A stretch of DNA of 64,000 nt from Candidatus Omnitrophota bacterium. Its GTDB lineage: Bacteria; Omnitrophota; Omnitrophia; Omnitrophales; Aquincolibacteriaceae. Below the pieces are notes generated by a model, which worked only from the letters and a program-made list of their open reading frames with translations, was not told the DNA's origin and did not search any database. The position numbers were made by a program, and so were the translations under genes. Position 1 is the first letter of the stretch, and each line of letters starts with the position of its first letter. The DNA is taken from contig JAHFHG010000005.1 in assembly GCA_023247035.1 (NCBI GenBank), forward strand, positions 7,515 through 71,514, in the 5' to 3' direction. Of the stretch, positions 4,964 through 60,498 are shown one piece after another.

Positions 4964-5521
4964 TCACCTCTTCGAAAGACGTCCCGGGTCCGAGTGTTTT
5001 AAAATCCAGACCCCAAGCCATCCTCCCAATATTCCGATAAAAGCTCCCGCGGCCACATCCGAAGGGTAATGGACTCCTATAAAAATCCTGGAAATTGCGA
5101 CGATGAAAGCCGCCGGATAAACAAACCGGGCCGCCCGGCCATAAAAGAAATGCAGCAGTACGGCTGCGGCAAAGGCTGCGGCCGAATGCCCGGAGGGGAA
5201 GGAGTAGGTATCCGGACGGGCAAAGAGTGTCCGGATCACGATTTCAGGCGGAAAAAAATCATAAGGCCTGGGCCGCATAAAGGCAAGTTTGAGCCCGCCG
5301 GCGAATAAATAGACTATCGTCACGACAAGGGCGAAAGCAAGATAGTCCTTCATCCATCCCTTTTGCCTGGAAATCCACATCACGCAAAATACGACGCCCA
5401 GCAAAACTTCAAGCCGCCCCAATACCGTAGGCCAGCCCAATAAATAATTGAGCCACTCTCGATCGTTGAATCTGTTCATCCACAGGAATAATCGATGATC
5501 CAGGTCAAAAATCCAGTTCAT
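4964..5521 (-). CDS. PAP2-family membrane phosphatase (undecaprenyl-/lipid-phosphate phosphatase-like)
   Basis: PSGHS...GVHYPSDV PAP2 motifs; ORF in track extends to 5599 but the start is probably the internal Met at 5521. Confidence 0.65.
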   Translation of the reverse strand: MNWIFDLDHRLFLWMNRFNDREWLNYLLGWPTVLGRLEVLLGVVFCVMWISRQKGWMKDYLAFALVVTIVYLFAGGLKLAFMRPRPYDFFPPEIVIRTLFARPDTYSFPSGHSAAAFAAAVLLHFFYGRAARFVYPAAFIVAISRIFIGVHYPSDVAAGAFIGILGGWLGVWILKHSDPGRLSKR

Positions 5522-5544
5522 GCGCCTCGCAAAGGAAATCGAAT

Positions 5545-6585
5545 TTACTTGGTGGCAATAAGCATCCAGGCCTTTGGACGAATGAGAATGCGCGGCCAAA
5601 AAGTGATTTTTTGGATGAACTGATAAAGAAATTTTTGAGCCCGCGCCCAGCGGGCGAAGCTTAATTTAGAGGAGGAATGGATCCCCCTTTTTTCTTTGCG
5701 GTCGATATAGTCATCGATAAAAGAAAACAAATGAATCTTCACTTTCCGGAATCCGCCCTGCCGCGCTCTCTTTTCCCACTGCGGAATCGTATAGGCGTTC
5801 TCATTGAATCCCTCGTGAATCGCTTCCTGCAGGGCCTTGCCGGATTTATCTTCAAAAACTCCGAAGGCGCATTCGTGGAGCGCGACCACCCTCCCGTTCG
5901 GACGGAGGACGCGGCGGAATTCATGAAAGAGTTTGGACAAATCTTTGCAGTGATGAATGACGGAGTGGGAAAAAATAATGTCGAAGCTTTCGTCCTTAAA
6001 AGGAAGCGCGCTCATGTCCGCGCTGAGCCGATCGAAATAGCTTCCGTCTTGCTCAAAATAAAGGTCGGCCGTGATCAAATAATCCGTCACATCTAGGGCC
6101 ACGACCTCGCAGCCGCGCTGGGCCATACGCCAGGAAGCCCAGCCGAAACTTGCGCCGACCTCCAGGACTTTCTCCCGGCCCGTCAATCGGAGGAGTTCCA
6201 AGGTTTCAAAAAACCGCCGGGCATTGCCTGCTTGATTTTCAAAGCTCCCGCCGGGCTGGAAGTAACGGCTCCCGTCGCCCGTGGGCAATTGAAGGAAAAG
6301 ATCTTTAAATTGCGTGATGGTCTGGCGGTTGATCGAATATTTTTCCCCGCTTTCTGTGGTAAGGTAGCCGAAAGATTCGGCGTGGTCCTTTTCGTGGGCC
6401 ACTTCCTCGGGCAATATGCCGAGCGCGTTCAATATTCCGTTCTCAATCTTGTAAATTCTCCGGCAAAAGCTGCACTCCAGAATGCCTTCCCGGATTTCGC
6501 GCTCATCTTCAAGCGTCACGGTAAGATTCCACTCGGACTGCCGGCAATCCAAACAGCGGAGAAATGCCAAAAGGTCTCTTCTCAT
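5545..6585 (-). CDS. class I SAM-dependent methyltransferase with N-terminal Trm112-like zinc ribbon
   Basis: N-terminal C-x2-C ... C-x2-C ribbon (CLDC...CSFC, ...ENGILNAL) fused to a Methyltransf_11-like domain (VLEVGASFGW...ALD); overlaps the upstream JAMM gene by 4 nt. Confidence 0.65.
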   Translation of the reverse strand: MRRDLLAFLRCLDCRQSEWNLTVTLEDEREIREGILECSFCRRIYKIENGILNALGILPEEVAHEKDHAESFGYLTTESGEKYSINRQTITQFKDLFLQLPTGDGSRYFQPGGSFENQAGNARRFFETLELLRLTGREKVLEVGASFGWASWRMAQRGCEVVALDVTDYLITADLYFEQDGSYFDRLSADMSALPFKDESFDIIFSHSVIHHCKDLSKLFHEFRRVLRPNGRVVALHECAFGVFEDKSGKALQEAIHEGFNENAYTIPQWEKRARQGGFRKVKIHLFSFIDDYIDRKEKRGIHSSSKLSFARWARAQKFLYQFIQKITFWPRILIRPKAWMLIATK

Positions 6586-7040
6586 AAGACAAAATCCTTT
6601 TTACCCGGCTCCCAGTAAAAAAGATTAGACCCGTGCGCTTTTCCCTGGATCACGGAGACAACCAAATAATCGACGCCCGGGTAAGCGGGCTCTCCTTCAC
6701 AAAGGGCAATGCGCCGGTCTTCCTCTGAAAAATAAGCGCCGGCGTCGATGTGCGAATGATAAATCACGCGGATCCTTTCCTTTTTTCCGCGCATCTCCTT
6801 CTGGATCGCCAATAATTCCTTGGGCTCCATGAAATAAGCGGAGGCGGCCGTCCTCGGAAAATTCACGGGATCTTTTTGATGATATTCATTTTGGACGTTT
6901 CTGCAAGGCCGGAGGCGCGAAAATTTTTCCGGATTCCCTGCCGCGGTTAAGATCAAGCCGCAGCATTCGTTGGGGTATTCGCGTTCGGCCTGCTGAAAAA
7001 TCGGCGTTAAGAATTTTTGAGGAATCGCTAAACGCTTCAT
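6582..7040 (-). CDS. JAMM/MPN metalloprotease, Mec+ (CysO-cysteine peptidase)-like
   Basis: Perfect JAMM motif E...HSH-x7-S-x2-D (HSHIDAGAYFSEED). Track ORF extends to 7205, but its 5' part overlaps the cysM remnant; the likely start is Met56 (MKRLAIPQ). Confidence 0.7.
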   Translation of the reverse strand: MKRLAIPQKFLTPIFQQAEREYPNECCGLILTAAGNPEKFSRLRPCRNVQNEYHQKDPVNFPRTAASAYFMEPKELLAIQKEMRGKKERIRVIYHSHIDAGAYFSEEDRRIALCEGEPAYPGVDYLVVSVIQGKAHGSNLFYWEPGKKDFVL

Positions 7041-7780
7041 TTCATCCACAACTGCGCGCTCAGATACTTGTCTCCGCCGTCCGGGAAAACAATCACGGCA
7101 ACTCCCTCGTCTAAGTTTTTCAGGGCCTGGAAAACCCCGTGGAGCGCTGCCCCCGAGGACGGGCCGACAAGCCATCCTTCTTTGGCCGCGAGTTCGCGCG
7201 TCCATTCGTAGGCCGGCTCGGTCGGAACGGTGACTTTCTCGTCATGAACCGCAGGGTCATAAATCCGCACCGGAACCGAGGAATCCATATTCTTCAGGCC
7301 TTCGATGCCGTGGAATGATTCCGGCTGGACCGCGATGATTTTTATATTTTTGTTTTTTTCTTTCAAAAAACGGCCGGCCCCCATCAGCGCGCCCAGTCAG
7401 AGCCTTTCAAGGGATCGGTATAAATGATCCTTGCCCCGTAAGCCTCAAGGATCATTTTGCGCTCGTAGCTTACATTTTTGGGCGCGACCAATTCAACAGG
7501 AAAAACCATGGCCGCTCCGATCATCGCGTAAGCAGTGCCGGTATTGCCCGAGGTGGAATCCATTAAGGTCTGCCTTTTCCGAAAGACTCCGGAACTCAAT
7601 CCCTCGCGGATCATCCGGTAAGCAGGCCGGGATTGAACCGCTCGGCTTTCGCGTAGATCTCAAGCCTTGGCGAGATTTCCTTCAGAATCCGGCTCAAGCG
7701 CAAAAGCGGCGTGCCGCCGATATGATCCAGCACGGAAAATTTCTTTTCAGCCGTAATCGAAGCGCGCATACCGCATTTTA
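7037..7780 (-). pseudogene. cysM: cysteine synthase (CysM/CysK family) pseudogene: two internal deletions and frame changes
   Basis: Three consecutive ORF pieces in different frames (7617-7780 N-term ...AKAERFNPG; 7384-7614 PAYRMIREGL...TSGNTG...; 7037-7384 GAGRFLK...C-term). The PLP-lysine segment (G-S-[IV]-K-D-R) between NPG and PAYRMI is missing and the reading frame shifts there. About 55 aa is missing between GSDWAR and GAGRF. Confidence 0.7.
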
Positions 7781-8178: not shown

Positions 8179-9825
8179 TCAATCTTCGTGAAGAACGCCG
8201 GCAAGGCCTTTGCCGGCTTTGAGTTCCACAAGCACATAGGGGCCCGGCTTCGAAGAGCGGGGGCGGCGGGTGCGTATTAAAAGGTTGATTCCCTCTCCTT
8301 GGGCAAACCATGCTTCTTCAAGAGGGATCGAAGGATTTTGAGCCGTAAAAGTTTTGATCTTCCGGCCTCGTTTTCCTGTTTTTCGAATGACATCCACCTC
8401 GTAAACGGAACCGTCTTGAGGCTCAAAACCATATTGGACGGCAAGGTCTTTAAAGTTCAGATGATTCCCCTGCAGCTCAAACTGATCCAGAGGATTGGAC
8501 TCCCGGAACCAGTGCTTCGCGATCAGATCGCGCCTTTCGGTTAAGACTTTTGCCAAATATTCGGCGTCTCCGGCCCGGCTCAGCTCGCCGGCTTGAACGA
8601 TCATTTTAATATCTTCATCGGTGAAGGCCGTCATGATTTTTGCAGCCCAAAAGCCGTCTGCCCGCGAAAGGTCTTTAAACGGAAAATACGGAAGCTGGGT
8701 CTTATATTGGGAAGGATCAAAATAGCGGTTATCAAAATAGCCCACGGCCGGGGAGTCGTGAACTTTCTCGCCGGCCTCGCGCCACCTTCTCTGCCAGGGT
8801 TTTTCCCATAACCCCAAACTGAGAAAGGCCTTTGCGGCCGCCCCGTAATCCAAGAAATATTCATGCCCCATGGGCGGAATCTTCGGGCCCTCCGTGGCCG
8901 AACCTAAGGTCATATTAAAATCAATGAGGTAATGCTTCAAAAATGATTTTCCATTTTCCGTGACCAGCATATCCAGCGTATTGCTCTCCCGGACATCGCA
9001 ATTATTCAGCCAGGAGGAAAAAACCTGCAGGGCCCGTATCGAGCGCCTGTCTTTATGATCCACAGGATCTTCAGGATCGTTTTTACGCCTTTTTTGAAAA
9101 CTGAAACTCCCCTTCTTTTCGCCTTTTAAAATTTTACTCGCCGACGCCCTTAACCGCCCCTCGGAATCCAAAGGCAAAAAGAGGATAAACTCTTCCAATT
9201 TATCTGGGGTCAACTTTTTCTTAAAACCCGTGGAGTCGATCACCTTCGCGTTCGGGCCCGGCACGAGTTTCTCCGGCGGGAAAACGACGTTGGTGTATTG
9301 GGGGACATGATAACCCAGGGCGTGATAAAAACGGCTGGCAATGACTTCCGCGCCCGTGGTCAGTTCAAAATAATCCTGCGGATCAAATTTTAGTAAATAC
9401 TCATCGCCCCGGCTGTCCTGAATAAAAAATCCAGGGTGCAGCCCTTCAAATTTGCCGCGGACAATCGTCAAATCGCCGCTTAAATCCGGGCCGTCCGTTT
9501 CGCGCGGACCGTCCTTGAGCTCCTGCGCTGAAAGGCGCTCGCGCCCGTGCCGGTTGACAAAAAACGCGGAATCCGGGACCTCGTCGTAAACATTGACATC
9601 CTTGGCGCGGAGACGTTTGCCGAATAAGGCCCGGTAAAGCCGCTCGAGGTGAAGAAACTGGGTGCCTTCGTAATATAAGTTCTGGTCAAAAACATCGCGG
9701 TAAAGACCTGTTTGATTTTTTTTGAATTCCACGGTCTCCGAGGCATAAACCCCGCGGCAGAGGGCGAAAGAAAAAATCGCGGCAATCAACAAGATGGGCT
9801 TAAAAAGGCGCTCGCGTCTCAACAT
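8179..9825 (-). CDS. secreted atypical kinase-like protein (PI3K/PI4K/HipA-CtkA superfamily catalytic motifs) with Sec signal peptide
   Basis: Signal peptide MLRRERLFKPILLIAAIFSFALCRGVYASE. Gly-rich loop and YLLKF segment; catalytic-loop-like NNCDVRESN (D-x-R-x-x-N) and LIDFNMTLG (IDF[GN]). Aligns with PI3/4K GDRHxDN...HIDFG and HipA GNtDDHlKN. Track ORF begins at 9876; start reassigned to the Met preceding the signal peptide. Confidence 0.45.
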   Translation of the reverse strand: MLRRERLFKPILLIAAIFSFALCRGVYASETVEFKKNQTGLYRDVFDQNLYYEGTQFLHLERLYRALFGKRLRAKDVNVYDEVPDSAFFVNRHGRERLSAQELKDGPRETDGPDLSGDLTIVRGKFEGLHPGFFIQDSRGDEYLLKFDPQDYFELTTGAEVIASRFYHALGYHVPQYTNVVFPPEKLVPGPNAKVIDSTGFKKKLTPDKLEEFILFLPLDSEGRLRASASKILKGEKKGSFSFQKRRKNDPEDPVDHKDRRSIRALQVFSSWLNNCDVRESNTLDMLVTENGKSFLKHYLIDFNMTLGSATEGPKIPPMGHEYFLDYGAAAKAFLSLGLWEKPWQRRWREAGEKVHDSPAVGYFDNRYFDPSQYKTQLPYFPFKDLSRADGFWAAKIMTAFTDEDIKMIVQAGELSRAGDAEYLAKVLTERRDLIAKHWFRESNPLDQFELQGNHLNFKDLAVQYGFEPQDGSVYEVDVIRKTGKRGRKIKTFTAQNPSIPLEEAWFAQGEGINLLIRTRRPRSSKPGPYVLVELKAGKGLAGVLHED

Positions 9826-11158
9826 AGAAATTTGTCCCTTCGTCGCCGTGGGCCCACTCCAATCCCAAGACGGCATGATTTAGAATGCTGATGCGGAATC
9901 CCAAGCCGTAGGACTCCTTGAAATCTTTGAACTGAAAATCCGAAAAGTCCCGAAACACCTGGCCCTCGTCCCAAAAAAGAACCGTATCGAGCTTCCAGTC
10001 TTTGTACTCCCAAATCGTATAACGGTATTCGAGGTTCAACAGCGCGTCGCTCTCGGCAAAAAATCTATTTTGAGCAAAGCCGCGCAGAGTCTGGCTTACG
10101 GAAGGATAAGCGCCGTAACCGCCCAGCTTAGCCATTTGATGAAAAGGGACGTCGCGGCCGGACAGTTCATTATTGTGCTCCCCGTGAAACCGAAGGGCAA
10201 GGACTCGGCGCGCGGAGCCTAAAGTGAAATAACGGCTTGCATCGGCTTCGTATTTGAAATAGCGCGCGGTCGAATTCCCAAGGCCTTCATTAAAATTGAA
10301 TCCCAGGCGCAGGCGCCCTCCCGCGGTCGAATTCTCCCGCTGGTTTCTCGTATCCCAGACAAACTCCGGCCCGATTGAAAGGAGTTCATCGCCGCTTAAA
10401 CCCGGAATAGACCCTGAAGAAAAGATGCGGTCGATAATCCCTCTGCCGCCGTCTTCGCCGTTTGTAATGTTAATGTTCCGGTAGGAAAATTTTAAGTCTC
10501 CGGAAAGCAAAGGATGCGGGGCATAGCCTACGTTTGCGCTGAGCGTTGTCGCCTCTAATTTATAGGATGTCCCGTCGCCCCGGCTTGTGTTTGGCCCGAT
10601 CCCGTGAAAATACTCCTCCGGACGGGATTCGTAGTTAAAAATCCCAAACGCGCGGAAGCCCGTGCCCCCGATACGCTCCAGCCCCGCTTTGGAACCCACC
10701 TCGAAAATCGACCGGTGCGCGTAAGAGGTCCAGCCCTGAACGATCAGGTCCGGGAAATGTGTTTTTTGCTGCGCCATACGGACAAAATCAAATTTTGTCC
10801 CGTTGTTGTTGAGGCCTATTTTGGGCGTAATTCCAAAATCCTGAATTTTCTCGTAGAGGTAGATGGTCTTTTCATACAAGTGTTCTTTCTCAACAAAAAC
10901 AAGGCCCTGGTCGACGGGCCATTTGATGAGTTCAAAAGGATAGACGAGAAAATGAGTAAGGGCATTTTGAGTCGAAGATTCCGGAGCCGGCTCCTTTTTG
11001 AAAATGGCGCCGTAGCGGTCGTAGCTTGCTTGCTCAGCCCAAGCTTGCAAGGAAATCCCCGCCAAGAAAAATCCCAGAAATCCGGCCGCAATTCGAGTGA
11101 AAACTGGGGTAGGTTTCAAAAGACGTGGCATAAGTGTTTCTTTATTACGGCTAGTCAT
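9800..11158 (-). CDS. Omp85-family (bacterial surface antigen D15-type) outer-membrane beta-barrel without recognisable POTRA domains
   Basis: C-terminal Omp85 barrel signature (NLEYRY...VLFWDEGQVF...YGLGFRI...LEWAHGDEGTNFYVETRAPF, terminal Phe); N-terminal signal-like hydrophobic segment; about 150 aa N-terminal region with no POTRA-like pattern. Confidence 0.55.
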   Translation of the reverse strand: MTSRNKETLMPRLLKPTPVFTRIAAGFLGFFLAGISLQAWAEQASYDRYGAIFKKEPAPESSTQNALTHFLVYPFELIKWPVDQGLVFVEKEHLYEKTIYLYEKIQDFGITPKIGLNNNGTKFDFVRMAQQKTHFPDLIVQGWTSYAHRSIFEVGSKAGLERIGGTGFRAFGIFNYESRPEEYFHGIGPNTSRGDGTSYKLEATTLSANVGYAPHPLLSGDLKFSYRNINITNGEDGGRGIIDRIFSSGSIPGLSGDELLSIGPEFVWDTRNQRENSTAGGRLRLGFNFNEGLGNSTARYFKYEADASRYFTLGSARRVLALRFHGEHNNELSGRDVPFHQMAKLGGYGAYPSVSQTLRGFAQNRFFAESDALLNLEYRYTIWEYKDWKLDTVLFWDEGQVFRDFSDFQFKDFKESYGLGFRISILNHAVLGLEWAHGDEGTNFYVETRAPF

Positions 11159-11167
11159 TCTTTTTTC

Positions 11168-13597
11168 TTAACTTCCAAGAATTTCGTGGAAACGCGGCTC
11201 ACGTTTGATCTTTTCAAGCTGCGGCCAGTTGCGGTTCCATTGGAGTTCGGAAACCACAAAAATTCCGATCAGGGAAAACCAGCGGTCTTCAAAACCGGCC
11301 AGCCCTTCGAGAATCCCCACAGCCTCCTCTTCTTCCGTAGACGAACTGTTGGGCTCCAAAACGCTCCCTAAAATGAGAAGGACGTCCGGCTCCACGGTGT
11401 TGGACAAAAGCTCGACGGCCTGCTGGCGGACAGGGTCGGATTCCGGGTGCTCCACAATCCAGGCGTGGATGTTGTGCATCATTTCGAGAGGGTACAAGAG
11501 ATCCAGGTAATGAAAAAGGCGTTCCAGGCTTTCGTCTAAAACGGTTTTGAGCGCCACCCTTAAGTACTTCGGATTCCCGCTCTTGGTTTGACGGTCATAA
11601 AAAAAAATCAATTTTTGAAAATTCTTATAAATTTTCACTTCGCGCGCGATCTCTGTTTTGATGGAAGCCGGGTTGATGGCCAGTTTCGGATCTTTTTCGT
11701 GCATCTGATCCAGCGCTTTTGCGATCACAAACCGGAATGCGTGATCCTGGGTTTCGCTGGAAAGCTTCAGAAGCAGGTCGAGAGCCTCCTGCTTGACGAT
11801 AAATCCCAGCAGCCGCACGGCTCTGCGTTTGGCATCCAGCCCTTCTTGCCGGTTTTCCAGGATTTTTTCCAATTGGTTTAAAATTTCCTGCGGGCCGCTT
11901 TGAAGATAATCCTTCCAGGCCGCCCGATTCAAAGCCTCCGGCCGTCCGTTTAAGAAAACGCGGTGGATGAAAAACCAATAATCATCGTGCGTCAGTTCAT
12001 CCTCAAGGCTGTTTAGGCTCTGATGAACCTGGAAGGCCTCTTCGCGGATCATCCGCTCCACCAGCCGCCTGGCCGAAGCCAGGTTCTGCGATCTCGTGTA
12101 AGCGAGGCAGGCCGTGGCCGCAATTTTTCGGGTATAAGAAGAAGGGTGGTTGATCAGAAATTGTATTTGATGCCAATTTTTTTCATCGTAAAGAAAACTC
12201 AGGACGTCGGTGGCCCGCTGGGCCTTGACGACTTCGGTGTGCGGCCAGCGGTGAAGCAGATGATGGCGCAAGAGATCGGAATAATTTTTACGCATTTGCC
12301 AGGCTAGGAAAAACCAAAGCGGCATCAACGTCAAAACCAGGATGCCGAGCCGTTCATCGCTAAGGCCCAAAAACGGCGCGGCAACGGCAATGTAAAGGCC
12401 GCCCAAGGTTTTTGCGCCTCGGAAACCCAGCATATCGATAATCGGTTTAACCCGGCGCCTGAGCGAACTTGAAAGAGGAAGAAACAGGACTTCCTTACTG
12501 GCCTGCTGAATGGAATAGTTAACGCTTCCGTCGAACGTTTTAAGAAGCAGGCTCGGAATCAGGAGCGCGGGAGAAAGAAAACTGAAAATAGAAAACGCGG
12601 CCAGCCCCAGCGGGAGCAGTTGAAGGGAAAATCCTATTCCAAGATACCGCAGACAAAGGCTGGTCAAAAAAAGCTGGATCAATAAAGAAACGCCGTTCAA
12701 AGAGGCCATAAATCCGCCCAGAAAAGCGGTCCGGTCGTCTTTGCCTAGAATCGCCAGCTCGACGCTGCGGCTGAATTGATTGTCAATAATCGTCGAGGCA
12801 ATCTTGGCGATTATGACGATCAAAGCAAGCATGATCAGGTAAGACGAACGGCGGACAATTTGAGGCCGCGCAGGATTCATCAAGGTAACCGTGAAGTCCG
12901 ACGAGTTCGCAGCTTGGCGCCTCTTCTCCCGGGGGTCGGGTGACTTGCCTGGGGAAGGATCGGAAGGCGCGGCGTCCATCCAATCCCGCGCCGGGACTTT
13001 TTTCCAGATCAAAAAGTTCAGGATCCCGCACAAGAAAAGAAGGCCGGCGACTCCTAAAAGCAAATCCTCCGTCTTCAGCCAGCGCACGGCGGCCTGCGTA
13101 AAAAAACCGCCCATCACTCCTCCGAGGGAGCCGCCGCTGATGATCAATCCAAAAAGACGTTTGGCCTCCGCCGGATTGAAAATATCATTGGCGAGGATCC
13201 AGAACTGCGTGGTCATCGTAATCGAAAAAGAAGCGACCCAGACATAAAAGAATGCGGAAAGATACGGCGTGTTCCGCCGGAACAAAAACCAGAAAATAAG
13301 AAGATTCGAGATAAAAAATGCGGGCACCAAAACGGAAAAGATATTTTTAGGAATGCGTTTGGATAAATAAACGTAAACCGCCACAACAAGAATAAGAAAA
13401 AATCCTTCGCCCATATACATAAACCGCAAATTCTGGGCGCCCAGCTCGGTCAAAAAAAGCGAGCTTCGCACAGGTTTGAGGATATAGATCAGGGCAATGA
13501 TCAGAAAAAAGCTGCAGAACATAAGGAACGTTTTTTTGCGTTCCCCGGGATGGATGTCGACAAACGCGCCCAGCAGCCGGCGCAGGAGTTGGGGCAT
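11168..13597 (-). CDS. TLC/AAA-family nucleotide (ATP/ADP) transporter-like permease fused to C-terminal HEAT-repeat domain
   Basis: N-terminal ~450 aa with 12 predicted TM helices and the TLC signature FW.LAN.I....EAKR.FG (FWILANDIFNPAEAKRLFGLI) matching Rickettsia/Chlamydia Tlc; C-terminal ~350 aa of alpha-helical HEAT/ARM-like repeats. Confidence 0.65.
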   Translation of the reverse strand: MPQLLRRLLGAFVDIHPGERKKTFLMFCSFFLIIALIYILKPVRSSLFLTELGAQNLRFMYMGEGFFLILVVAVYVYLSKRIPKNIFSVLVPAFFISNLLIFWFLFRRNTPYLSAFFYVWVASFSITMTTQFWILANDIFNPAEAKRLFGLIISGGSLGGVMGGFFTQAAVRWLKTEDLLLGVAGLLFLCGILNFLIWKKVPARDWMDAAPSDPSPGKSPDPREKRRQAANSSDFTVTLMNPARPQIVRRSSYLIMLALIVIIAKIASTIIDNQFSRSVELAILGKDDRTAFLGGFMASLNGVSLLIQLFLTSLCLRYLGIGFSLQLLPLGLAAFSIFSFLSPALLIPSLLLKTFDGSVNYSIQQASKEVLFLPLSSSLRRRVKPIIDMLGFRGAKTLGGLYIAVAAPFLGLSDERLGILVLTLMPLWFFLAWQMRKNYSDLLRHHLLHRWPHTEVVKAQRATDVLSFLYDEKNWHQIQFLINHPSSYTRKIAATACLAYTRSQNLASARRLVERMIREEAFQVHQSLNSLEDELTHDDYWFFIHRVFLNGRPEALNRAAWKDYLQSGPQEILNQLEKILENRQEGLDAKRRAVRLLGFIVKQEALDLLLKLSSETQDHAFRFVIAKALDQMHEKDPKLAINPASIKTEIAREVKIYKNFQKLIFFYDRQTKSGNPKYLRVALKTVLDESLERLFHYLDLLYPLEMMHNIHAWIVEHPESDPVRQQAVELLSNTVEPDVLLILGSVLEPNSSSTEEEEAVGILEGLAGFEDRWFSLIGIFVVSELQWNRNWPQLEKIKREPRFHEILGS

Positions 13598-39706: not shown

Positions 39707-41542
39707 TCAAAGCGCCGTTTCTGAAGATGAGCGAAGAACCTTTTCGGATTCAAGCAGGGCCAGGATTTTCTTGGCGTTTTTATTGACCGCATCTTGAGGA
39801 TCTAAGTTTAAATCGACAATCCCTTCCCGGAAACTATTCTCTCCCACGTTTACAATAAACATATCCGCGCGGTCCGCCACTTCCTGCAGCAGTCTCAGCT
39901 CCTCATCATTAAGATTGCTGGCGGTTGCAAGAACGATCAAGCCCGCATCCATCAGAAGGTGCGAGACTTCCCCGAGCCGGCGGACGTGCTCTCTTCGCGC
40001 GGAGCGGTCTTTTTCAAGATCCGCGTCCAGCCCGCGCAGCAGATTGCCAATGCCTAAAAAATATGTTTTTGCCTCTCGTTCAAAGAGGATTTTTTCCACT
40101 TCCTTGGCGATCGATTTTTTGTCGACCCCGACTTTCCCGGTGAGCAGGATCAGCTTGGGGCGGTGGCCGTAGCGGGCCTCGCGTGCCTTGGGATCTACAA
40201 TGCTGAAATCCCATTTCATTTCGCGCTTCTGGACCTGTTCCCGGACCTCAGCCTGATCATCTTTGACCAGGGCGGAAATAATCCCTCCGCCCGAAATATC
40301 ATATTTGTCCACGATCACGAACCGGCCGGTGGCTTCGATGCTGCTTGCGAGATCAAAGGCGACCGGCGAAGCGCACTCCAGAATAACTTGCGCGACGTCG
40401 TGCCGGTCAATGCGGTTTTTTTTTCTTTTTTTCAGATCCGAGGCGTCGATAATTTTTTTGATCTTCCGGAGCCGCGCCGGGACCTTGGCGGCCGCGATCT
40501 TCAATTGGTATTCCTTATCAAGGGCCATAGGCTCCTTGCCCATCCAGAAAATTTCCGCCTGGATCAGCGTGCTGACCCACGGGGGAGGCTCCTCGAGCTT
40601 GCACATCATGTCCCCGCGGTTGATATAGATCTGCTCCTTCAAGGTGAAGCCCGCCGAATAACCGGCCGCTGTCTTTTTGCGCGGCGCCGCATTGAATGCT
40701 TCGATCGATTTGATTTCCGAACGCTTGTTGGAAGGCAGAAAAACCACCTTGTCTCCGGCCGCGATCGAGCCGGATTCGATCTTACCGGCAATGATCCTCC
40801 GGTCGTCCCCGGCTTCGGTGAATTTGTAGACCGCCTGCACCGGCATACGGAAGGGTTTTTCCTCAAGGCTCTTGGCGTTTTCAAAAGAATCCAGCACCTC
40901 AAGAATCGATTCCCCTGAAAACCATGCAAATTTGGGTTGTTCGGGCAGAATATTTATGCCTTTAAGGGCGGAGATCGGAATAAAGAATTTGGGTTCGATA
41001 TCAATTTGCTTCAAAAATTTCCGGTATTCATTCTCAATCTTTCTAAAAACTTTTTCGTCATTGCCGACAAGATCCATTTTGTTGATGCAAACCGCGATCT
41101 GGCGAATGCCCAACATGGAAAGCAGATAACCGTGCCGGCGGGAATTTTCCTGCACGCCCTCCTTGGCGTCGATCACAAGCAGGGCCGCCTCGGCGCGCGC
41201 CGCGCCGCTCACCATATTTTTGAGGAATTCAATATGCCCCGGCGCGTCAATGATGAGGTATTCCCTCTTCCGGCTCCTGAAAAAACAACGGGCGCTGTCA
41301 ATGGTGATCCCTTGAGCTTGCTCATCTTTAAGGGCGTCTAAAAGAAAGGCGTACTCAAAAGGTTTGGCGTTTCGGGCGCACTCCGCGCGGACCTGTTCCA
41401 GCTTGCCTTGGGGAAGAGAACCGGTGTCGTGAAGGAGCCGGCCGATCACCGTGCTCTTGCCGTGATCCACGTGGCCGACAATCACGATATTCATTTTTTC
41501 ATTTGAAGATTTTTTCATAGCGGAATGGGCGGGCCGGCTCAC
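39707..41542 (-). CDS. cysNC: bifunctional sulfate adenylyltransferase subunit 1 / APS-kinase-like (CysN-CysC fusion; kinase Walker A degenerate)
   Basis: N-terminal EF-Tu-like GTPase ([10 protein letters not shown]), central CysN beta-barrels, C-terminal APS-kinase-like domain where the usual GLSGSGKST reads GKVGVDKKS. Confidence 0.8.
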
Positions 41543-44424: not shown

Positions 44425-46938
44425 TTATTTTTCCTCTTGCTCGTCTTCTTCCTGGAGTTCAAGCTGATCGGACCCCTCTGCGGATTCCGCTCCTTCTTTT
44501 TCGACGACGCGGATCGCGGCGGCGACGCGCTGCTTGTCTTTTAATCGAATGACGTGCACGCCCTGCGCGTTTCTTCCGGAAGTCCGAATCTGGCTCACGG
44601 GGCAGCGGACGACCATTCCGCCGGTGGTGACAATAACCAGTTCGTCTTCCTCGTGAACGGTCAGGACATTAACCACGGGACCGTTTTTCGACGTGACTTT
44701 GACATTAATAATTCCCTTCCCGCCGCGCGACTGGACGCGGTATTCTTTGAATTTCGTCTTCTTGCCAAAACCGAGCTCGGTCACGCTTAAGCACACCGCT
44801 TCAGAATCCGCAATCTCCATTGCGATCACTTCGTTTTTTTTCTCGAGCCGGATGCCGCGGACGCCCGAGGCGGTGCGGCCCATATCCCTGACTTGTTTTT
44901 CTGAAAAACGAATCGCCTTCCCGGTGCGTGTCGCAAGAAAGATTTCGTCTTTTCCGGACGTCAATTTACAGGATACAAGCTCATCTTTGTCGCGCAAAGT
45001 GATCGCGTTAATTCCCGTAGTGCGCGGATGGGAATAGTGAACAAGGTTCGTCTTTTTGATGATCCCGTTTTTGGTGGCCATCAGGACGTATTGTTTGTCA
45101 TTGAATTTTTTGACCTGAAGGAAACTTGAAATCTTCTCGTCCTGGCCCAGCGAAAGAAGATTCACAATAGCCTTGCCTCGCGCCTGTCGCGACGCCTGGG
45201 GAATTTCATAAGCCTTCCGCCAATAGACGCGGCCCTTATTCGTAAAAAAAAGGATCGAGTCGTGCGTAGAAGACAAAAACATGTGCTCGATAAAATCTTC
45301 CTCGTCCCGCATTCCGGCCCCCGTAACGCCCGTGCCGCCGCGGCGCTGCTTGCGGTACATCGAAACCGGAATCCGCTTGATATATCCGGCGTGCGAGATC
45401 GAGATCAAAACGTCCTCTTCGGCGATCAAATCCTCGATTTCAATTTCTTCTTCCGCGGCCACAATCTGGGTCCGCCTTTCATCGCCGTATTTTTTAGCCA
45501 ATTCTTCGCATTCGGCCCTTACGATTTCCAGCACCCTTTTGCGGCTTTTGAGCACCGCGCGGTAATCTTCGATTTTTTTGATCAGCCCCAAGTATTCCTC
45601 GTCGATCTTCTCCCGCTCAAGGGCCGTCAGCCGCTGGAGCTGCATTTCCAAAATCGCCTGCGCCTGGACTTCCGTAAGTTTAAAATTCTCCAGTAAGCCT
45701 TGTTTCGCGGCCTCCGGGCTTTTTGAAGCGCGGATCACCTTGATGACTTTATCCAGATTCGCAATCGCGATCTTGAGGCCTTCTAAAATGTGCGCGCGCT
45801 TTTCGGCCTTTTCCAGCTCGAAGCGGGTACGCCGGATCACCACCTCCACGCGGAATTCTATAAAATGCTCAATCGCCTGTTTGATCGTCAGCACGCGCGG
45901 CTGGCCGTCGACCAAGGCCAGCATAATCACGCCGAAGGTTTCCTGCATCTGAGTGTGTTTGTAGAGCTGGTTCAGAACAATCTGAGGCACGGCGTCGCGC
46001 TTGATTTCGATCACCGCCCTCATTCCGTCGCGGTCCGATTCGTCGCGGATATCGTGGATGCCTTCTATTTTTTTGGCCTCCACTAAATGCGCTATCGACT
46101 GAATCAAATTGGCCTTGTTGACCTGGTAAGGGATTTCCGTAATGACAATCGCGTCTTTTTTCGTTTTCGAAGTTTCGATCACGGCCTTCGCGCGCACCAC
46201 GATCCGGCCGCGCCCCGTCTCTTGAGCGCTCCTGATCCCGTCTCTTCCCAAAATCAATCCGCCCGTCGGAAAGTCAGGGCCTTTGATAATCTTGGAAAGT
46301 TCCTTGATCGTGACTGCGGGATTTTCAATCGTGGCGATAATTCCCGACACGATTTCTCTAAGGTTGTGCGGCGGCACATTCGTCGCCATTCCCACCGCGA
46401 TTCCGCTCGATCCGTTGACTAAAAGACTGGGCAGGCGCGCGGGCAGAAGCGTCGGCTCTTCCAAGGACTCGTCGAAATTCGGCGTGAAACTCACCGTCTC
46501 CTTGTCGATGTCCGTCAGAAGCTCGTTGCTGATCGCTGAAAGCCGTGCCTCGGTATACCGCATCGCCGCGGGATTGTCGCCGTCGATCGATCCGAAATTC
46601 CCCTGGCCTTCGACGAGCGGGTAGCGCAGGGAAAAATCCTGGACCATCCTCACCAGCGCGTCATAAACCGCCATATCGCCGTGCGGGTGATATTTCCCGA
46701 GCACTTCTCCGACGATACGCGCCGCTTTTTTATAAGGCCTATTGTGCGCCAGCCCCAATTCATTCATCGCATAAAGAATGCGGCGGTGAACGGGCTTGAG
46801 CCCGTCGCGGACATCCGGCAAAGCCCGGCCGACAATGACGGACATTGCGTAGTCAATGTATGAATGCCGCATTTCGTCTTCGATTGGGGTCGGGACTATT
46901 TTTTCATTCATTGCGTAAAGATTCATATCGTCGGGCAT
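44425..46938 (-). CDS. gyrA: DNA gyrase subunit A
   Basis: 837 aa; active-site Tyr region AARYTE-like plus C-terminal beta-pinwheel repeats. Confidence 0.92.
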
Positions 46939-47055
46939 ATATAATTCCTATTTTATTCTCTCGTTTAAAGGATTCTCAAAATTGTCGTGGGGCTTCGCCG
47001 CTGGGTTCTCGCGATGACGCAAGATAAGGTTTTTATTCGCAGGCCCTGCAGCGCA

Positions 47056-49560
<2,505 letters not shown>

Positions 49561-49585
49561 TTAACCTTTTTGGTAAATTCATGTT

Positions 49586-49876
49586 CTAACGAAGCTGGCC
49601 CACATAAATGCGGACGGTTTTAACTTCTTCTCCCAGCTCCGCCTGTGCGCGCTTTAAAAGCGTGCGTTTGTATCTTTGATTGAGTTCAAAGGCCAAAGCC
49701 GCCTGTTCGACCCAAACGGAGAGCTCACCGTTTTTTCCCAGGCAAGGCTTGGTGCAGGAACTGATTTTAGAGCCCGCAATGCTCGGCCATTTTTCCACAA
49801 GCCGGCTTCTTTTCAGCGCCAAAGGGGTCATTAAATTTTGAAAAACCGCGGGCAGAATATCTTTGACGGCCTGCAT
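49586..49876 (-). CDS. DUF721/DciA-like small protein in the recF position (possible helicase-loader-type factor)
   Basis: 96 aa; located between dnaN and gyrB, where DUF721/DciA (e.g. Mtb Rv0004) is typically found; 1-nt overlap with dnaN. Confidence 0.4.
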   Translation of the reverse strand: MQAVKDILPAVFQNLMTPLALKRSRLVEKWPSIAGSKISSCTKPCLGKNGELSVWVEQAALAFELNQRYKRTLLKRAQAELGEEVKTVRIYVGQLR

Positions 49877-50976
49877 TAATTCAATTGCATAGGCATCACC
49901 ACGTAGAGATACCCGTCCTTTCCGCGCACAAGGCCCGGCTTATCGGGATCGGTCAGCGAGAGAGAGATTGTTTCAATATCCAGATTTTTTAAGACATCAA
50001 TAAGATAGTGAGGATTAAACCCTATCGCAACTTCATCGCCCGTCACCTCGGCGGGAAGCTCTTCTTTGGCCTCGCCAAGATTCGGCGAGCGCGAAGAGAC
50101 AAGGATTTTGCCACGGATAAAATCCAGTTTGACGGCGGGTGAATCAGGCGAAGTCAGAAGCGCTGTTCTTCGTATCGCCTGGAGAAACTCCTCCCGATTT
50201 GCGGATGAAGTTGTTTTTTCCGTCTTGGGGATAACCTGTTCATAATTTGGAAAATGCCCTTCGATAAGCCGGGAAAACAACTGAGTTTCTCCTAAATTGA
50301 AAATGGCCTGATTTTGAGAAAAAACAATTTGCATTGTCCCTTCCCAAGCAAGCAATTTAAGAAGTTCTTGCACAGCCTTCACAGGGACAATCATCTCGAA
50401 GTGGCGATTATTTTTATTCTTAAACTCTTTTTCAATATAAGCCAGCCGGCGGCCGTCTGTGGAGACAAAGCGGATTTGATTCCCTTTGACTGAAATAAGA
50501 ACTCCATTTAAAACATAACGTGTTTCATCGTAAGAAATTGCAAAGGAAGTTAATCCGAGGCTTTCTTTAACTAAGGACTGCTCAATTTCTATTGCGTCTT
50601 CGCTGGACCATTCGGGGAATTTTGGATAATCCTCTTTGGCCAGGCCCATAATTTTAAAATACGCGGTTCCTGACTTGATATTAACGGCATTGTTTTTCGC
50701 AACTGTAATCTCAATCTCTCCTTCGGGAAGTTCGCGCACAATTTCATAAATTTTTTTAGAGGGAATGGTAATACTTCCAGGTTTGATCACGTGCGCGGGA
50801 ATATTTGTGGAAATCCCAACCTCTAAATCTGTGCCGATCACTCGAAGAGTATCTTGAGTCACGGTCTCAAAGAGAATATTTCCTAAAATAGGGAGTGTGT
50901 TTGTTCGCTGAGAAGCAACGTTTGAAACGTTCCCCAACACCTTTGAAAGGGTGTTCTTTAAAATCTTAATCTCCAT
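49876..50976 (-). CDS. dnaN: DNA polymerase III beta sliding clamp
   Basis: 366 aa, three-domain clamp. Confidence 0.9.
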   Translation of the reverse strand: MEIKILKNTLSKVLGNVSNVASQRTNTLPILGNILFETVTQDTLRVIGTDLEVGISTNIPAHVIKPGSITIPSKKIYEIVRELPEGEIEITVAKNNAVNIKSGTAYFKIMGLAKEDYPKFPEWSSEDAIEIEQSLVKESLGLTSFAISYDETRYVLNGVLISVKGNQIRFVSTDGRRLAYIEKEFKNKNNRHFEMIVPVKAVQELLKLLAWEGTMQIVFSQNQAIFNLGETQLFSRLIEGHFPNYEQVIPKTEKTTSSANREEFLQAIRRTALLTSPDSPAVKLDFIRGKILVSSRSPNLGEAKEELPAEVTGDEVAIGFNPHYLIDVLKNLDIETISLSLTDPDKPGLVRGKDGYLYVVMPMQLN

Positions 50977-51114
50977 AAATATTCTCCTTTGTTTCTAATA
51001 AGACTTTATATTTTAACAAAATAGTCGTCATAATAATAGGCTTTGTTTGTATGTGGATAAATATTTTAACTTGTTTTAAACATTAAAGTTATAAAAATTA
51101 AAAGTTGTGGATAA
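50977..51114. promoter_or_regulatory. dnaA-dnaN intergenic oriC-like segment: AT-rich with two DnaA boxes (TGTGGATAA at 51052-51060 and 51106-51114)
   Basis: Two perfect 9-mers complementary to TTATCCACA in a >75% AT spacer. Confidence 0.6.
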
Positions 51115-52509
51115 TTAACCCCTTCTTTTCAACAAATCCACAAGCTCCTCAATTTGTCTTTTGGTTTGTATATTCTGTTTAACCTCGGCGCCAAGTTTAT
51201 TAAAAGCATGAAGCACGGTTGTGTGGTCCCTTCCCCCAAAATATTCCCCAATTTCAGGCAAAGAATGAGTTGTTACCGACCGAATCAAATACATTGCAAT
51301 TTGACGGGGCCTGACGATTGACCGGTTGCGTCTTTTAGCTCTTAAATCGGAAACCTTCAAATGGAAGTAGTCGGCCACAATGCGCTGAATTTGTTCCATA
51401 CTGATTTTTTGTTCTTCTTCTTTCAAGGAATCCCGTAAGATTTCTTGGGCAAGTTTGAGATTAAGCGCCTTTCCGGTAAGCGTGCAGTAAGCCACCACGC
51501 GGATAAGGGCCCCTTCCAGCTCCCTGATATTCGACCGGATTTTGCTGGCGATAAAAAAGGCGACATCATCCGGAACAACCACCGTTTCCTTTTCCATTTT
51601 TTTTCTCAGGATAGCCACCCGAGTCTCGAAATCAGGAGGTTGAATATCGGTCACCAATCCCCAGCTAAACCGCGAAACAAGGCGCTCTTCTAATCCGGGA
51701 ATATCTTTGGGCGGGCGGTCGCTGGAAACAATGATTTGTTTGTGGGCATCGTAGAGCGTATTGAAGGTGTGAAAAAACTCTTCCTGCGTCGCTTCTTTTT
51801 CCGCGATAAAGTGGATGTCGTCGATCAACAAAAGATCCAGCGTCCGGTATTTATTCCGGAACTGGTGCGTGGAGCGGTTCTGAATGGCTGTGATGAGCTG
51901 GTTGGTGAATTTCTCGCTTGAAATATAAAGCACACGGAAATCCGGGCAGCGTTTTTTAATCTCGTGGGCGATGGCTTGCATCAAATGAGTTTTTCCTAAA
52001 CCCACGGGGCCGTAAATAAAGAGAGGATTATACTGGCGCGCCGGCGCTTGGCAAACGGCCAGGGCCGCGGCGTGGCCAAAACGATTGCTGGGCCCCACCA
52101 CAAAATTTTCGAAAGTATAATGGCTGTTCAACGCGCTGTCGGGCGCATCCCCGTAAGAGCGGCTCTTTGCCGCCTCATTATTTTTGACTGACGCCGAACG
52201 CGGCGGCTCGACAATTTTATATTTGATTTGAAGCGCCGCTCCAAGCGTTTCTTCAACCGCGCTGGAAATCAGGTTTTCATAATGAGTCTTGAGCCAATGC
52301 CCATAATAACTATCAGGCACGCTTAGCGTTATAGAATTTCCGTCCAGATCCAGACAGCGCACAGGCTCAAGCCACGTCTTGAAGGATTGTTCACTGAGCT
52401 CTCGGGCCAAAACTTGCCTGATTTTGTTCCAGGCATTGAGGAACCGTTCAGCCTTTTTTACGACGTCGGGCTGAACAGTTGATAAAGAGGGTATTGAGAA
52501 ATTATCCAC
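51115..52509 (-). CDS. dnaA: chromosomal replication initiator protein DnaA
   Basis: 464 aa; AAA+ Walker A GPVGLGKTHL, C-terminal DnaA signature domain; GTG start overlapped by a DnaA box. Confidence 0.92.
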   Translation of the reverse strand: MDNFSIPSLSTVQPDVVKKAERFLNAWNKIRQVLARELSEQSFKTWLEPVRCLDLDGNSITLSVPDSYYGHWLKTHYENLISSAVEETLGAALQIKYKIVEPPRSASVKNNEAAKSRSYGDAPDSALNSHYTFENFVVGPSNRFGHAAALAVCQAPARQYNPLFIYGPVGLGKTHLMQAIAHEIKKRCPDFRVLYISSEKFTNQLITAIQNRSTHQFRNKYRTLDLLLIDDIHFIAEKEATQEEFFHTFNTLYDAHKQIIVSSDRPPKDIPGLEERLVSRFSWGLVTDIQPPDFETRVAILRKKMEKETVVVPDDVAFFIASKIRSNIRELEGALIRVVAYCTLTGKALNLKLAQEILRDSLKEEEQKISMEQIQRIVADYFHLKVSDLRAKRRNRSIVRPRQIAMYLIRSVTTHSLPEIGEYFGGRDHTTVLHAFNKLGAEVKQNIQTKRQIEELVDLLKRRG

Positions 52510-57260: not shown

Positions 57261-58115
57261 ATGGGAGAAATTATGAAAAATATATTTGCCTTTTGTAATC
57301 AAAAAGGAGGAGTCGGAAAGACAACCTCTGTGGTTAATATTTCGGCTGTTTTGGCTCAAGAATGCCAACGTGTTCTGGTTATTGATATGGATGCTCAAGC
57401 AAATGCAACAAGCGGATTTGGAGAAGAAAAGCCGGGTATAGAATTCACAACTTATCAACTTCTTGTGGAAAATGATCAGCCCCAAAAAGTGATTAAGAAA
57501 ACGGCTATTCAAAATTTGGATTTAATCCCCTCAAATACGGATTTATCAGGCGTGGAGTTGGATTTAATCTCCCGTCAAAGAAGGGAATACATCCTGAAAG
57601 AAAAGGTCAGCCTTATTTCAGCGGATTACGATTACATCTTTATCGATTGCCCGCCCTCGCTTGGCCTGACCACGATTAATGCTCTTTGTGCAAGCGATTA
57701 TTTAATCATCCCAATGCAGTGCGAATATTATGCCCTGGAAGGACTCAGCCACCTTTTAGGCACATTTCAGCTGGTCCAGAAAAACCTGAATCCTTCTTTA
57801 GAAATCGGCGGAGTCATTTTAACGATGGCGGATTTCCGCACCAACCTTACCCAGCAGGTCATTGAAGAGGTGAAGAATTTTTTCAAAAATAAAGTATTTG
57901 ATACAGTCATCCCGCGATCCGTGAGGCTTTCTGAGGCGCCGAGTTTTGGAAAGCCGGCCGTGATTTACGATCCGCTTGCAAAGGGATCAAAATGTTATCA
58001 GGCCATTGCTCGAGATTTTATGAAACGATTCGGTTCGAAAATGGAATTGAAGGAGCCGAAAACACCAGCCTGCGATCAGGAAAAAAGCCGCCAAAAAGAG
58101 GAGATCAAAATATGA
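57261..58115 (+). CDS. parA: chromosome partitioning ATPase ParA/Soj
   Basis: Deviant Walker A KGGVGKTT; 284 aa. Confidence 0.9.
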   Translation: MGEIMKNIFAFCNQKGGVGKTTSVVNISAVLAQECQRVLVIDMDAQANATSGFGEEKPGIEFTTYQLLVENDQPQKVIKKTAIQNLDLIPSNTDLSGVELDLISRQRREYILKEKVSLISADYDYIFIDCPPSLGLTTINALCASDYLIIPMQCEYYALEGLSHLLGTFQLVQKNLNPSLEIGGVILTMADFRTNLTQQVIEEVKNFFKNKVFDTVIPRSVRLSEAPSFGKPAVIYDPLAKGSKCYQAIARDFMKRFGSKMELKEPKTPACDQEKSRQKEEIKI

Positions 58116-60426: not shown

Positions 60427-60498
60427 AAGTTGCCTTTTCGGCGCCCGCTTTTTGGAGGGATACGCCGCGAAATTATTTCTACATTGAAAGGATTAAAA

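Follow-up and report, generated by a model that had tools for sequence, protein, structure and literature searches.

A conserved Omp85-kinase gene pair and its frequent TLC-family carrier partner in Omnitrophota and other bacteria

The stretch of DNA analysed here (hereafter the window) comprises 64,000 nucleotides of contig JAHFHG010000005.1 from a Candidatus Omnitrophota bacterium, and our subject is a row of three genes lying head to tail on its minus strand, downstream of rpsP-trmD-rplS-rnhB-yraN. Gene A encodes a carrier of the TLC/NTT family, gene B an outer-membrane barrel of the Omp85 family, and gene C an exported protein that we take up below as an apparent atypical kinase. A first-pass annotation, made from the sequence alone, had placed the three genes on one strand at positions that re-translation of the coordinates bore out. 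Their features are as follows.

11168-13597, minus strand: gene A, TLC/NTT-family transporter with a C-terminal HEAT-repeat tail, 809 residues
12278-13597, minus strand: TLC membrane domain of gene A (residues 1-440), ~11-12 hydrophobic segments, basic N-terminus and basic central loop
11168-12277, minus strand: HEAT-repeat tail of gene A (residues 441-809 plus stop)
9800-11158, minus strand: gene B, POTRA-less Omp85 outer-membrane barrel, open reading frame (ORF) of 452 residues
9800-9825, minus strand: 26-nucleotide overlap of the Omp85 3' end with the kinase 5' end
8179-9825, minus strand: gene C, predicted exported atypical kinase of an unannotated family, 548 residues from the MLRRER start
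9742-9825, minus strand: Sec-type signal peptide of the kinase, MLRRERLFKPILLIAAIFSFALCRGVYA, predicted cleavage before SE
9388-9390, minus strand: codon of K146, predicted beta3 ATP-binding lysine (YLLKFDP) in model strand 142-147
8980-8997, minus strand: predicted catalytic loop D277-V-R-E-S-N282, of the form D-x-[RK]-x-x-N, after an alphaE-like helix (261-273)
8914-8922, minus strand: D302-F-N, DFG equivalent with the predicted metal-binding Asp, after two further strands
8179-8490, minus strand: C-terminal beta-sandwich (residues 446-548), FN3-like, with a conserved H-x-D end

The TAG stop of yraN abuts the ATG of gene A with 0 nucleotides between them, and genes A and B are 9 or 36 nucleotides apart, depending on whether gene B is read from the beginning of its ORF or from the probable start at 11131, which follows the database gene call and gives 443 residues. 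The start chosen for gene C matches that of an identical database protein. Inside the end of gene B, a GAAGGGA Shine-Dalgarno-like site lies 9 nucleotides ahead of the kinase ATG, and this putative ribosome-binding site, together with the overlap of the two frames, suggests that the Omp85 and kinase genes are translationally coupled. The guanine-plus-cytosine (GC) content of the three genes (~0.50-0.51) is the same as that of the rest of the window. A non-coding spacer of ~410 nucleotides follows 3' of the kinase gene; Rfam gave no match in it, and promoter and terminator scans for the operon boundaries gave no excess over shuffled expectation.

The TLC and HEAT assignments made at first pass held up, both Pfam models being matched above their gathering scores: TLC (PF03219) at 47.1 bits (cut-off 21, E = 2e-12) over residues 125-439 and, after it, HEAT_2 at 31.6 bits (cut-off 27.7, E = 2e-7) over residues 576-636. 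Gene A also matched the solved 'ADP,ATP carrier protein 1' (9j3n; phmmer E = 2.6e-6, residues 25-438), and the signature stretches FW..AN.I...EAKR and SKE...PL...K..ID are kept in that alignment. A simple hydropathy scan gave 11 peaks, some of them merged or missed, and we infer a 12-helix carrier with N-terminus and central loop in the cytoplasm; the HEAT tail would likewise be cytoplasmic, given the MFS-like layout of 12 transmembrane segments and the positive-inside distribution of charge. This tail is optional, as relatives have TLC genes of 431-479 residues. Homologues of gene A are named Npt1/Npt2 family nucleotide transporters or ATP:ADP antiporters and carry PF03219 with PF13646 (and in some cases PF00027), including NTT-HEAT-cNBD architectures, and on the evidence of these homologues gene A is placed among the NTT-HEAT proteins that Major et al. 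described as a monophyletic clade (PMC5381601) and that are common in free-living bacteria (Major, Embley & Williams 2017). TLC genes often stand in tandem, a short paralogue (~436-440 residues) with a long HEAT-bearing one (~930-945 residues; L087 5347-10356 and L069 12943-17205, where L numbers denote the loci compared below), sometimes followed by a cyclic-nucleotide (cNMP)-binding protein, and such tandems occur both with and without an Omp85-kinase pair nearby.

Gene B matched the Pfam Omp85 model PF01103 above its gathering score (E = 1.5e-19). Its AlphaFold model (predicted local distance difference test, pLDDT, 88.4) consists of a signal helix, three short helices (residues 53-98) and a barrel of ~16 strands, and the beta-alpha-alpha-beta-beta unit of a POTRA domain is absent from it, as the first-pass description of a POTRA-less Omp85 had it. 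The three helices, between signal peptide and barrel, are conserved and predicted to be periplasmic. An LRGF loop-6 motif occurs at residue 349 of the 443-residue form; its Arg (R350 in the alignment) is invariant in 62 homologues, of which 61 carry a signal peptide. The barrel is nearer to BamA, TamA and Sam50 than to the TpsB pores FhaC and CdiB. The BamA equivalog model TIGR03303 scored 49 bits, short of its cut-off of 297, and this score and the missing POTRA unit speak against gene B being the organism's own BamA or TamA, an eventuality the first-pass annotation had allowed for; a canonical BamA separate from gene B was not found within the 64-kilobase (kb) window. Because the modelled protein is a 16-strand Omp85 barrel without POTRA that falls far from the BamA model, it fits the 'noNterm' class of Omp85 proteins (PMC4104836, PMC11358297).

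Gene C was matched by no Pfam or NCBIfam family. The PI3K/PI4K model PF00454 and the HipA models PF07804 (HipA_C) and PF20613 (HipA_2) gave no match either. We used two alignments of the kinase, with 64 close and 50 distant homologues; among the latter, 5 of 50 matched HipA_2 and 4 of 50 HipA_C at E ≤ 0.1, none reaching the gathering score, and the PDB, searched by sequence and by profile for the kinase and both alignments, returned spurious armadillo or Ig matches only. The structural model (pLDDT 89.6, predicted template-modelling score 0.89) has a bilobal protein-kinase-like fold and is laid out as signal peptide, conserved N-terminal extension, kinase core, helical C-lobe and FN3-like C-terminal domain, with the N-terminal region, helical or extended, packing on the kinase core. 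Most structural neighbours are protein kinases; the nearest include the Helicobacter pylori secreted kinase CtkA and the Legionella effector MavQ, and PI4K2A and Fam20B are also among them.

Five positions, assigned from the order of secondary structure in the model, make up the predicted catalytic set: K146, E160 (on an alphaC-like helix), D277, N282 and D302. All five are present in the window protein and are 82-100% conserved. Position 146 is a Lys in 61 of 64 close homologues and in 47 of 50 distant ones; in the catalytic loop, the two alignments show 97% and 90% conservation for the Asp and 97% and 94% for the Asn, and at the DFG position most of the distant relatives have IDFGSTLG. The likeness of the catalytic segments to PI3K, HipA and CtkA put forward at first pass held up, the two motif segments being the conserved catalytic loop and the DFG equivalent. 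As shown by computation, with the fold taken from the model, gene C encodes a predicted Sec-exported protein of protein-kinase-like fold with a complete catalytic set and, to judge from these residues, an apparently active kinase.

The Sec signal claimed at first pass was found on the window kinase, and an N-terminal hydrophobic segment or signal peptide is conserved in 61 of the 64 close and 47 of the 50 distant homologues. Export of a folded, nucleotide-loaded kinase by the Tat route was ruled out, a strict twin-arginine motif occurring in 0 of the 114 sequences. Anchoring of the window kinase as a lipoprotein was also ruled out, its FALC not being a lipobox; lipobox-like motifs do occur in 15 of the 50 distant homologues. 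Three of the distant proteins (P0234, P0229 and P0262; 742-1158 residues) lack the catalytic-loop Asp and have 200-600 extra C-terminal residues, in which no Pfam domain was found. A fusion of a GT4 glycosyltransferase with the kinase (P0237) is a single case, possibly a merged gene call, and was given no weight.

Conservation of the pair, its carrier and its catalytic residues

The kinase family comprises 2482 clusters at 50% identity (E ≤ 1e-3), of which 629 have E ≤ 1e-30, and is present in at least 502 species-representative genomes from at least 7 phyla. Most carriers are Omnitrophota; the others belong to Acidobacteriota, Ignavibacteria, Zixibacteria, Latescibacterota, Poribacteria, Calditrichota and Bradymonadia. 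All named members are annotated as 'hypothetical protein'. For the gene neighbourhoods, the ORFs of 85 loci, from our own ORF calls with Pfam spot-checks, were labelled by means of jackhmmer profiles started from the window proteins. Of the 72 loci with enough upstream sequence, 68 by script have an Omp85 gene as the immediate upstream, same-strand neighbour of the kinase, and the number rises to approximately 70 once it is considered that two of the four misses (L053 and L064) are ORF-overlap artefacts in which the barrel is present. These loci come from at least six phyla (Omnitrophota, Acidobacteriota, Ignavibacteria, Zixibacteria, Poribacteria and Calditrichota), and the two genes usually overlap or are at most 14 nucleotides apart. 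Given this near-constant adjacency, the arrangement is not due to chance.

Among the 46 fully flanked loci, 22 have a TLC gene on the same strand no more than 4.5 kb away, 11 of them upstream and 11 downstream of the pair, and in 16 of the 46 this gene carries a HEAT tail. Loci bearing it include non-syntenic contexts and other phyla (L004, L068, L069, L073, L079, L081, L083 and L086). Since the barrel and the kinase stay together in nearly all loci whereas the carrier is found in about half, on either side, the Omp85-kinase pair is the core of the cluster and the TLC(-HEAT) gene a frequent partner in permuted order. The first-pass annotation expected the trio to be co-conserved and missed the pair as its core. 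Nor are the genes 'accessory', as they had been called, because in Omnitrophota the pair occupies a fixed, vertically inherited place after rnhB-yraN. More distant NTT-HEAT-cNBD genes do not adjoin the pair. A small exported protein with a lipobox or signal peptide, DUF5329, accompanies the carrier in 11 of the 22 TLC-bearing loci; it had no match in the PDB, and in NCBIfam it matched 'hypothetical protein' models only.

We next aligned the full-length kinases of the loci with the family profile and scored each for the pentad K146/E160/D277/N282/D302, with the following result for loci with (TLC+) and without (TLC-) a carrier gene, where Fisher's test takes no account of phylogeny.

All non-duplicate loci: TLC+, 35 intact and 0 degenerate; TLC-, 14 intact and 28 degenerate; Fisher p = 7e-11
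Loci with full flanks only: TLC+, 22 intact and 0 degenerate; TLC-, 5 intact and 19 degenerate; Fisher p = 1e-8

Most of the intact loci without TLC in the full set are truncated contigs. Replacement of K146 by E, R, Q, V or Y was seen only in loci without a TLC gene. Approximately 10 degenerate patterns were found (EEDDD, KEDTG/REDTS, KERND/KERSD, KEGNN, KENNG, QEDNN, RDEND/REEND, VSDIQ, YMNSG, EEDND and KEDAD), and neighbour-joining places them in between intact sisters that have a TLC gene, L017 and L024 for example. If catalysis depends biochemically on the carrier, decay is expected to recur independently and only in the carrier's absence, which is the pattern seen. The degenerate kinases keep their Omp85 partner and the invariant residues R92, D137, R261, R264, D390, W393 and R431, and for this reason the pair appears to have a second, non-catalytic role. 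They have lost one or more catalytic residues and are found in many Omnitrophota, at L001, L009, L013, L019, L023, L026, L027, L030-L034, L036-L038, L040-L042, L044, L045, L047-L049, L051, L058 and L085; one Omnitrophota clade, for example, combines K146E with N282D.

Three unrelated phosphatase families recur beside the pair, and the kinase is catalytically intact in every locus that bears one.

PTP/dual-specificity-like phosphatase, HCRRGAERTG active site (HCxxGxxRT), signal peptide, directly upstream of the barrel: 8 loci (L050, L053, L056, L057, L061, L062, L063 and L086)
Purple-acid-phosphatase-like metallophosphoesterase, signal peptide: 4 loci (L069, L073, L079 and L083)
PAP2 membrane phosphatase, directly downstream of the kinase: 3 loci (L004, L015 and L022)

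As the kinase and the phosphatases are all predicted to be exported, this association points to a phosphate mark that would be made and removed outside the cytoplasm. The window itself has a PAP2 gene (listed below) 2.6 kb downstream of the kinase; a broken cysteine synthase gene and JAB and methyltransferase genes lie between the two, and it is uncertain whether the PAP2 gene belongs to the unit.

Outside Omnitrophota, the kinase often stands beside signalling genes: a PAS/GAF hybrid histidine kinase of 1882 residues (L069 2874-8522), a 7TMR-DISM histidine kinase where the barrel would be (L075 8247-9815), a response regulator (L067 13959-14534) and a Ser/Thr kinase with TPR repeats (L083 6635-9388). 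These adjoining histidine kinases, response regulator and Ser/Thr kinase are a hint that the kinase is linked to signal transduction in those lineages.

Readings of the cluster

The reading we prefer is an envelope phosphorylation module. After Sec export, the kinase would remain periplasmic and, at the inner face of the outer membrane, would dock on the barrel or be handled by it, while the inner-membrane TLC carrier would exchange ATP (out) for ADP (in) and so supply it with ATP. In Rickettsia and Chlamydia, TLC carriers exchange ATP and ADP obligately and reversibly, the direction being set by gradients; in a cell that makes its own ATP, the exchange would therefore run as ATP export against periplasmic ADP. 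The kinase would then phosphorylate an envelope substrate, whether protein or lipid or glycan of the outer membrane; the mark would be reversed by the phosphatases (PTP-like, metallophosphoesterase or PAP2), and the cytoplasmic HEAT tail may gate or regulate the carrier. Judged by its intact KEDND pentad and TLC-HEAT gene, the window carries the 'active' version. As to the class of substrate, the D-x-[RK]-x-x-N loop and the majority of the modelled structure's neighbours suggest a protein kinase, and lipids and glycans are still candidates because PI4K2A, MavQ and Fam20B are among those neighbours and PAP2 genes among the partners. We hold the chain as a whole tentatively, its probability falling a little short of even. 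Its broader form, a periplasmic, ATP-driven kinase/phosphatase cycle of many diderm bacteria with TLC-borne ATP export, a barrel-docked kinase and phosphatase reset, seems to us possible and on balance somewhat doubtful. An 'envelope signalling device', one of the two functions floated at first pass, is compatible with the findings.

Several observations weigh against this module. In 24 of the 46 fully flanked loci no TLC gene is adjacent, and five of these keep an intact kinase; Seymour et al. reported K03301 translocases in two Omnitrophota classes only. On both counts TLC cannot be the universal source of ATP, unless it is encoded elsewhere or was missed. The curated NTP/NDP exchanger model TIGR00769 gave gene A 31.4 bits, below its cut-off of 387, and by sequence the TLC domain is a divergent branch of its family, with a weak match to the generic MFS_1 model as well. 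The Fisher values given above ignore phylogeny, and many of the degenerate members belong to one large Omnitrophota sub-clade. Finally, a periplasmic, a surface and a secreted location of the kinase are all compatible with the data.

The alternative that fares best is a role in outer-membrane biogenesis or as a scaffold, in which the kinase-fold protein mainly binds, or does other nucleotide chemistry such as AMPylation, and the TLC-like MFS protein moves another solute, for example a phosphorylated precursor or product. Kinase folds have been turned to AMPylation or glutamylation in SelO and SidJ. The many lineages that lose the pentad and keep both the Omp85 partner and the non-catalytic invariant residues would be explained directly, as would the distant long paralogues without a catalytic Asp, and the low exchanger-equivalog score and generic MFS_1 match of the TLC domain sit well with another solute. 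On the other hand, all five phosphotransfer residues are kept in 35 of 35 TLC-bearing loci, D-x-[RK]-x-x-N followed by DFG is a phosphotransferase signature, the co-clustering of three unrelated phosphatase families favours a phosphate mark, and the TLC signature motifs are kept relative to the solved ADP/ATP carrier. We regard this alternative as unlikely.

A host- or prey-interaction role, close to the energy-parasite framing of the first-pass annotation, would have the Omp85 barrel export or display the kinase as an effector in a two-partner-like manner and the TLC carrier import ATP from the partner cell. Omnitrophota have been proposed to be host-dependent, with their ATP/ADP translocases read as ATP scavengers (PMC10066038, where neither barrel nor kinase is mentioned). 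CtkA and MavQ, among the structural neighbours, are a secreted kinase and an effector; an Omp85 gene with a downstream passenger follows type Vb logic; a relative of the kinase occurs in predatory Bradymonadia; and joint loss of TLC and catalysis could reflect a shared lifestyle instead of biochemical coupling. Against this, groups not known to be parasitic (Acidobacteriota, Ignavibacteria, Calditrichota, Zixibacteria, Latescibacterota and Poribacteria) have the cluster too, as do Bradymonadia, and free-living bacteria commonly carry NTT-HEAT proteins (PMC5381601). The pair has a fixed core-genome place after rnhB-yraN in Omnitrophota, and its pseudokinase versions keep the barrel pairing. The barrel is BamA/TamA-like and without POTRA, the kinase has no TPS domain (indeed no Pfam match at all), and exported phosphatases are encoded in the same operons. 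The framing is thus disfavoured, and we consider it decidedly improbable.

Chance adjacency of unrelated housekeeping neighbours, with gene B as a general BamA or TamA, would suit a region dense with housekeeping genes (rpsP-trmD-rplS-rnhB-yraN upstream) in which the look for a canonical BamA covered the 64-kb window only, but is effectively refuted by the neighbourhood statistics and extremely improbable: the pair is kept with overlapping frames in ~70 of 72 loci and at least six phyla, TLC lies on either side of it in unrelated genomic contexts, catalytic integrity follows TLC presence, and gene B, lacking POTRA, stays at 49 of the 297 bits of the BamA cut-off.

Other features of the window

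Downstream of the kinase, the window holds the PAP2 gene mentioned above and a split cysteine synthase; three further regions lie at a distance.

4964-5599, minus strand: PAP2 membrane phosphatase (Pfam PAP2 E = 1.6e-24), undecaprenyl pyrophosphate phosphatase/PgpB-like in NCBIfam
7037-7769, minus strand: cysteine synthase (CysK/CysM-like) in three frames (7611-7769, 7384-7614 and 7037-7384), between the kinase and JAB genes
6582-7205: JAB/Mec+-like gene adjoining the split cysteine synthase
39707-41542, minus strand: CysN-like GTPase fused to an APS-kinase domain (sulfate activation)
44425-52509, minus strand: gyrA, gyrB, an ORF of 366 residues (49876-50976) and dnaA
56001-58000: second low-GC stretch (0.42), downstream of mnmG, with ORFs at 57261-58115 and 57992-59017
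60430-62970, plus strand: GH94 cellobiose/chitobiose-phosphorylase-type enzyme

The split cysteine synthase is either a frameshifted pseudogene or the product of assembly errors; a JAB/Mec+-like gene is the usual partner in CysO-type cysteine synthesis. The 366-residue ORF is presumably dnaN. GC falls to 0.43 at 50-52 kb, where GC skew changes sign, and the region 44425-52509, at ~50000-52000, is probably the replication origin. The CysN-like fusion and the GH94 enzyme belong to ordinary metabolism.

Comparison with known systems

The first-pass annotation had stated that no described system corresponds to the three genes, and none was found: the kinase family, the Omp85-kinase pair and the TLC link have no description in Pfam, NCBIfam, PADLOC (whose defence models gave nothing relevant) or the incomplete body of literature that was searched, which took in surveys of Omp85 diversity, NTT diversity, Omnitrophota and bacterial kinase-like families, so that novelty here means absence of evidence and not proof. 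The parts are known folds; their combination, and the evolutionary coupling of carrier presence to kinase catalysis, are new. Were the ATP-export step to prove wrong, a conserved and undescribed outer-membrane system would still be there in the Omp85-kinase pair. If that step is right, some bacteria supply ATP to a kinase outside the cytoplasm, and a testable function would follow for the NTT-HEAT proteins (PMC5381601), the 'noNterm' Omp85 proteins (PMC4104836) and the exported kinases now called 'hypothetical'. The use of ATP/ADP translocase genes as evidence of host dependence in Omnitrophota (PMC10066038) would also be questioned, the 'ATP/ADP translocase' being recast from a marker of parasitism to an envelope-energising device.

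Gene A shares with the NTT-HEAT clade (PMC5381601) a TLC domain followed by HEAT repeats; the window carrier is tied to an Omp85-kinase pair, whereas the more distant NTT-HEAT-cNBD loci are without it. Relative to the characterised Tlc/Npt1 translocases of Rickettsia and Chlamydia, which bring host ATP into the parasites, the direction proposed for gene A is the reverse.

The 'noNterm' Omp85 proteins (Heinz & Lithgow 2014, PMC4104836; in Leptospira, PMC11358297) resemble gene B in having 16 strands and no POTRA, and their genes, too, are often flanked by one for an exported protein or lipoprotein. Unlike what we find for gene B, those papers report no kinase or TLC neighbour; gene B further differs in its conserved three-helix, predicted periplasmic segment and in an NCBIfam subfamily signal of its own, below the cut-off. 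In TpsB/TpsA and TamA/TamB, an Omp85-family barrel gene is likewise followed by the gene of a partner that is exported to the periplasm and works with the barrel, but gene B has no POTRA and its partner no TPS, AsmA-like or DUF490 domain. From CtkA and HipA (PF07804, PF20613) the window kinase is set apart by its signal peptide, a conserved 90-residue N-terminal extension, a large helical C-lobe and an FN3-like domain, and it is not part of a toxin-antitoxin pair.

To our knowledge, the periplasm has no ATP-generating system, and it is taught as ATP-free, which is why known envelope modifications use lipid-linked or other non-nucleotide donors. The module proposed here would be a widespread exception. 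LpxT, which also transfers phosphate onto an envelope molecule on the periplasmic side and also involves PAP2-family enzymes, takes undecaprenyl pyrophosphate as its donor because ATP is absent there (PMC2229476), whereas the window encodes an ATP-type kinase fold together with a candidate ATP supply. A functional analogy, as far as it can be inferred, is with the eukaryotic secretory-pathway kinases Fam20C and Fam20B, which are fed by an ATP/ADP exchanger of the endoplasmic reticulum and Golgi. No sequence relationship with the window kinase was detected, and the Fam20 system uses an SLC35 carrier, whereas the window module would use a TLC/NTT (MFS-like) carrier, act in the bacterial periplasm and have a dedicated Omp85 barrel; if the proposal holds, it would be a bacterial counterpart of that eukaryotic system.

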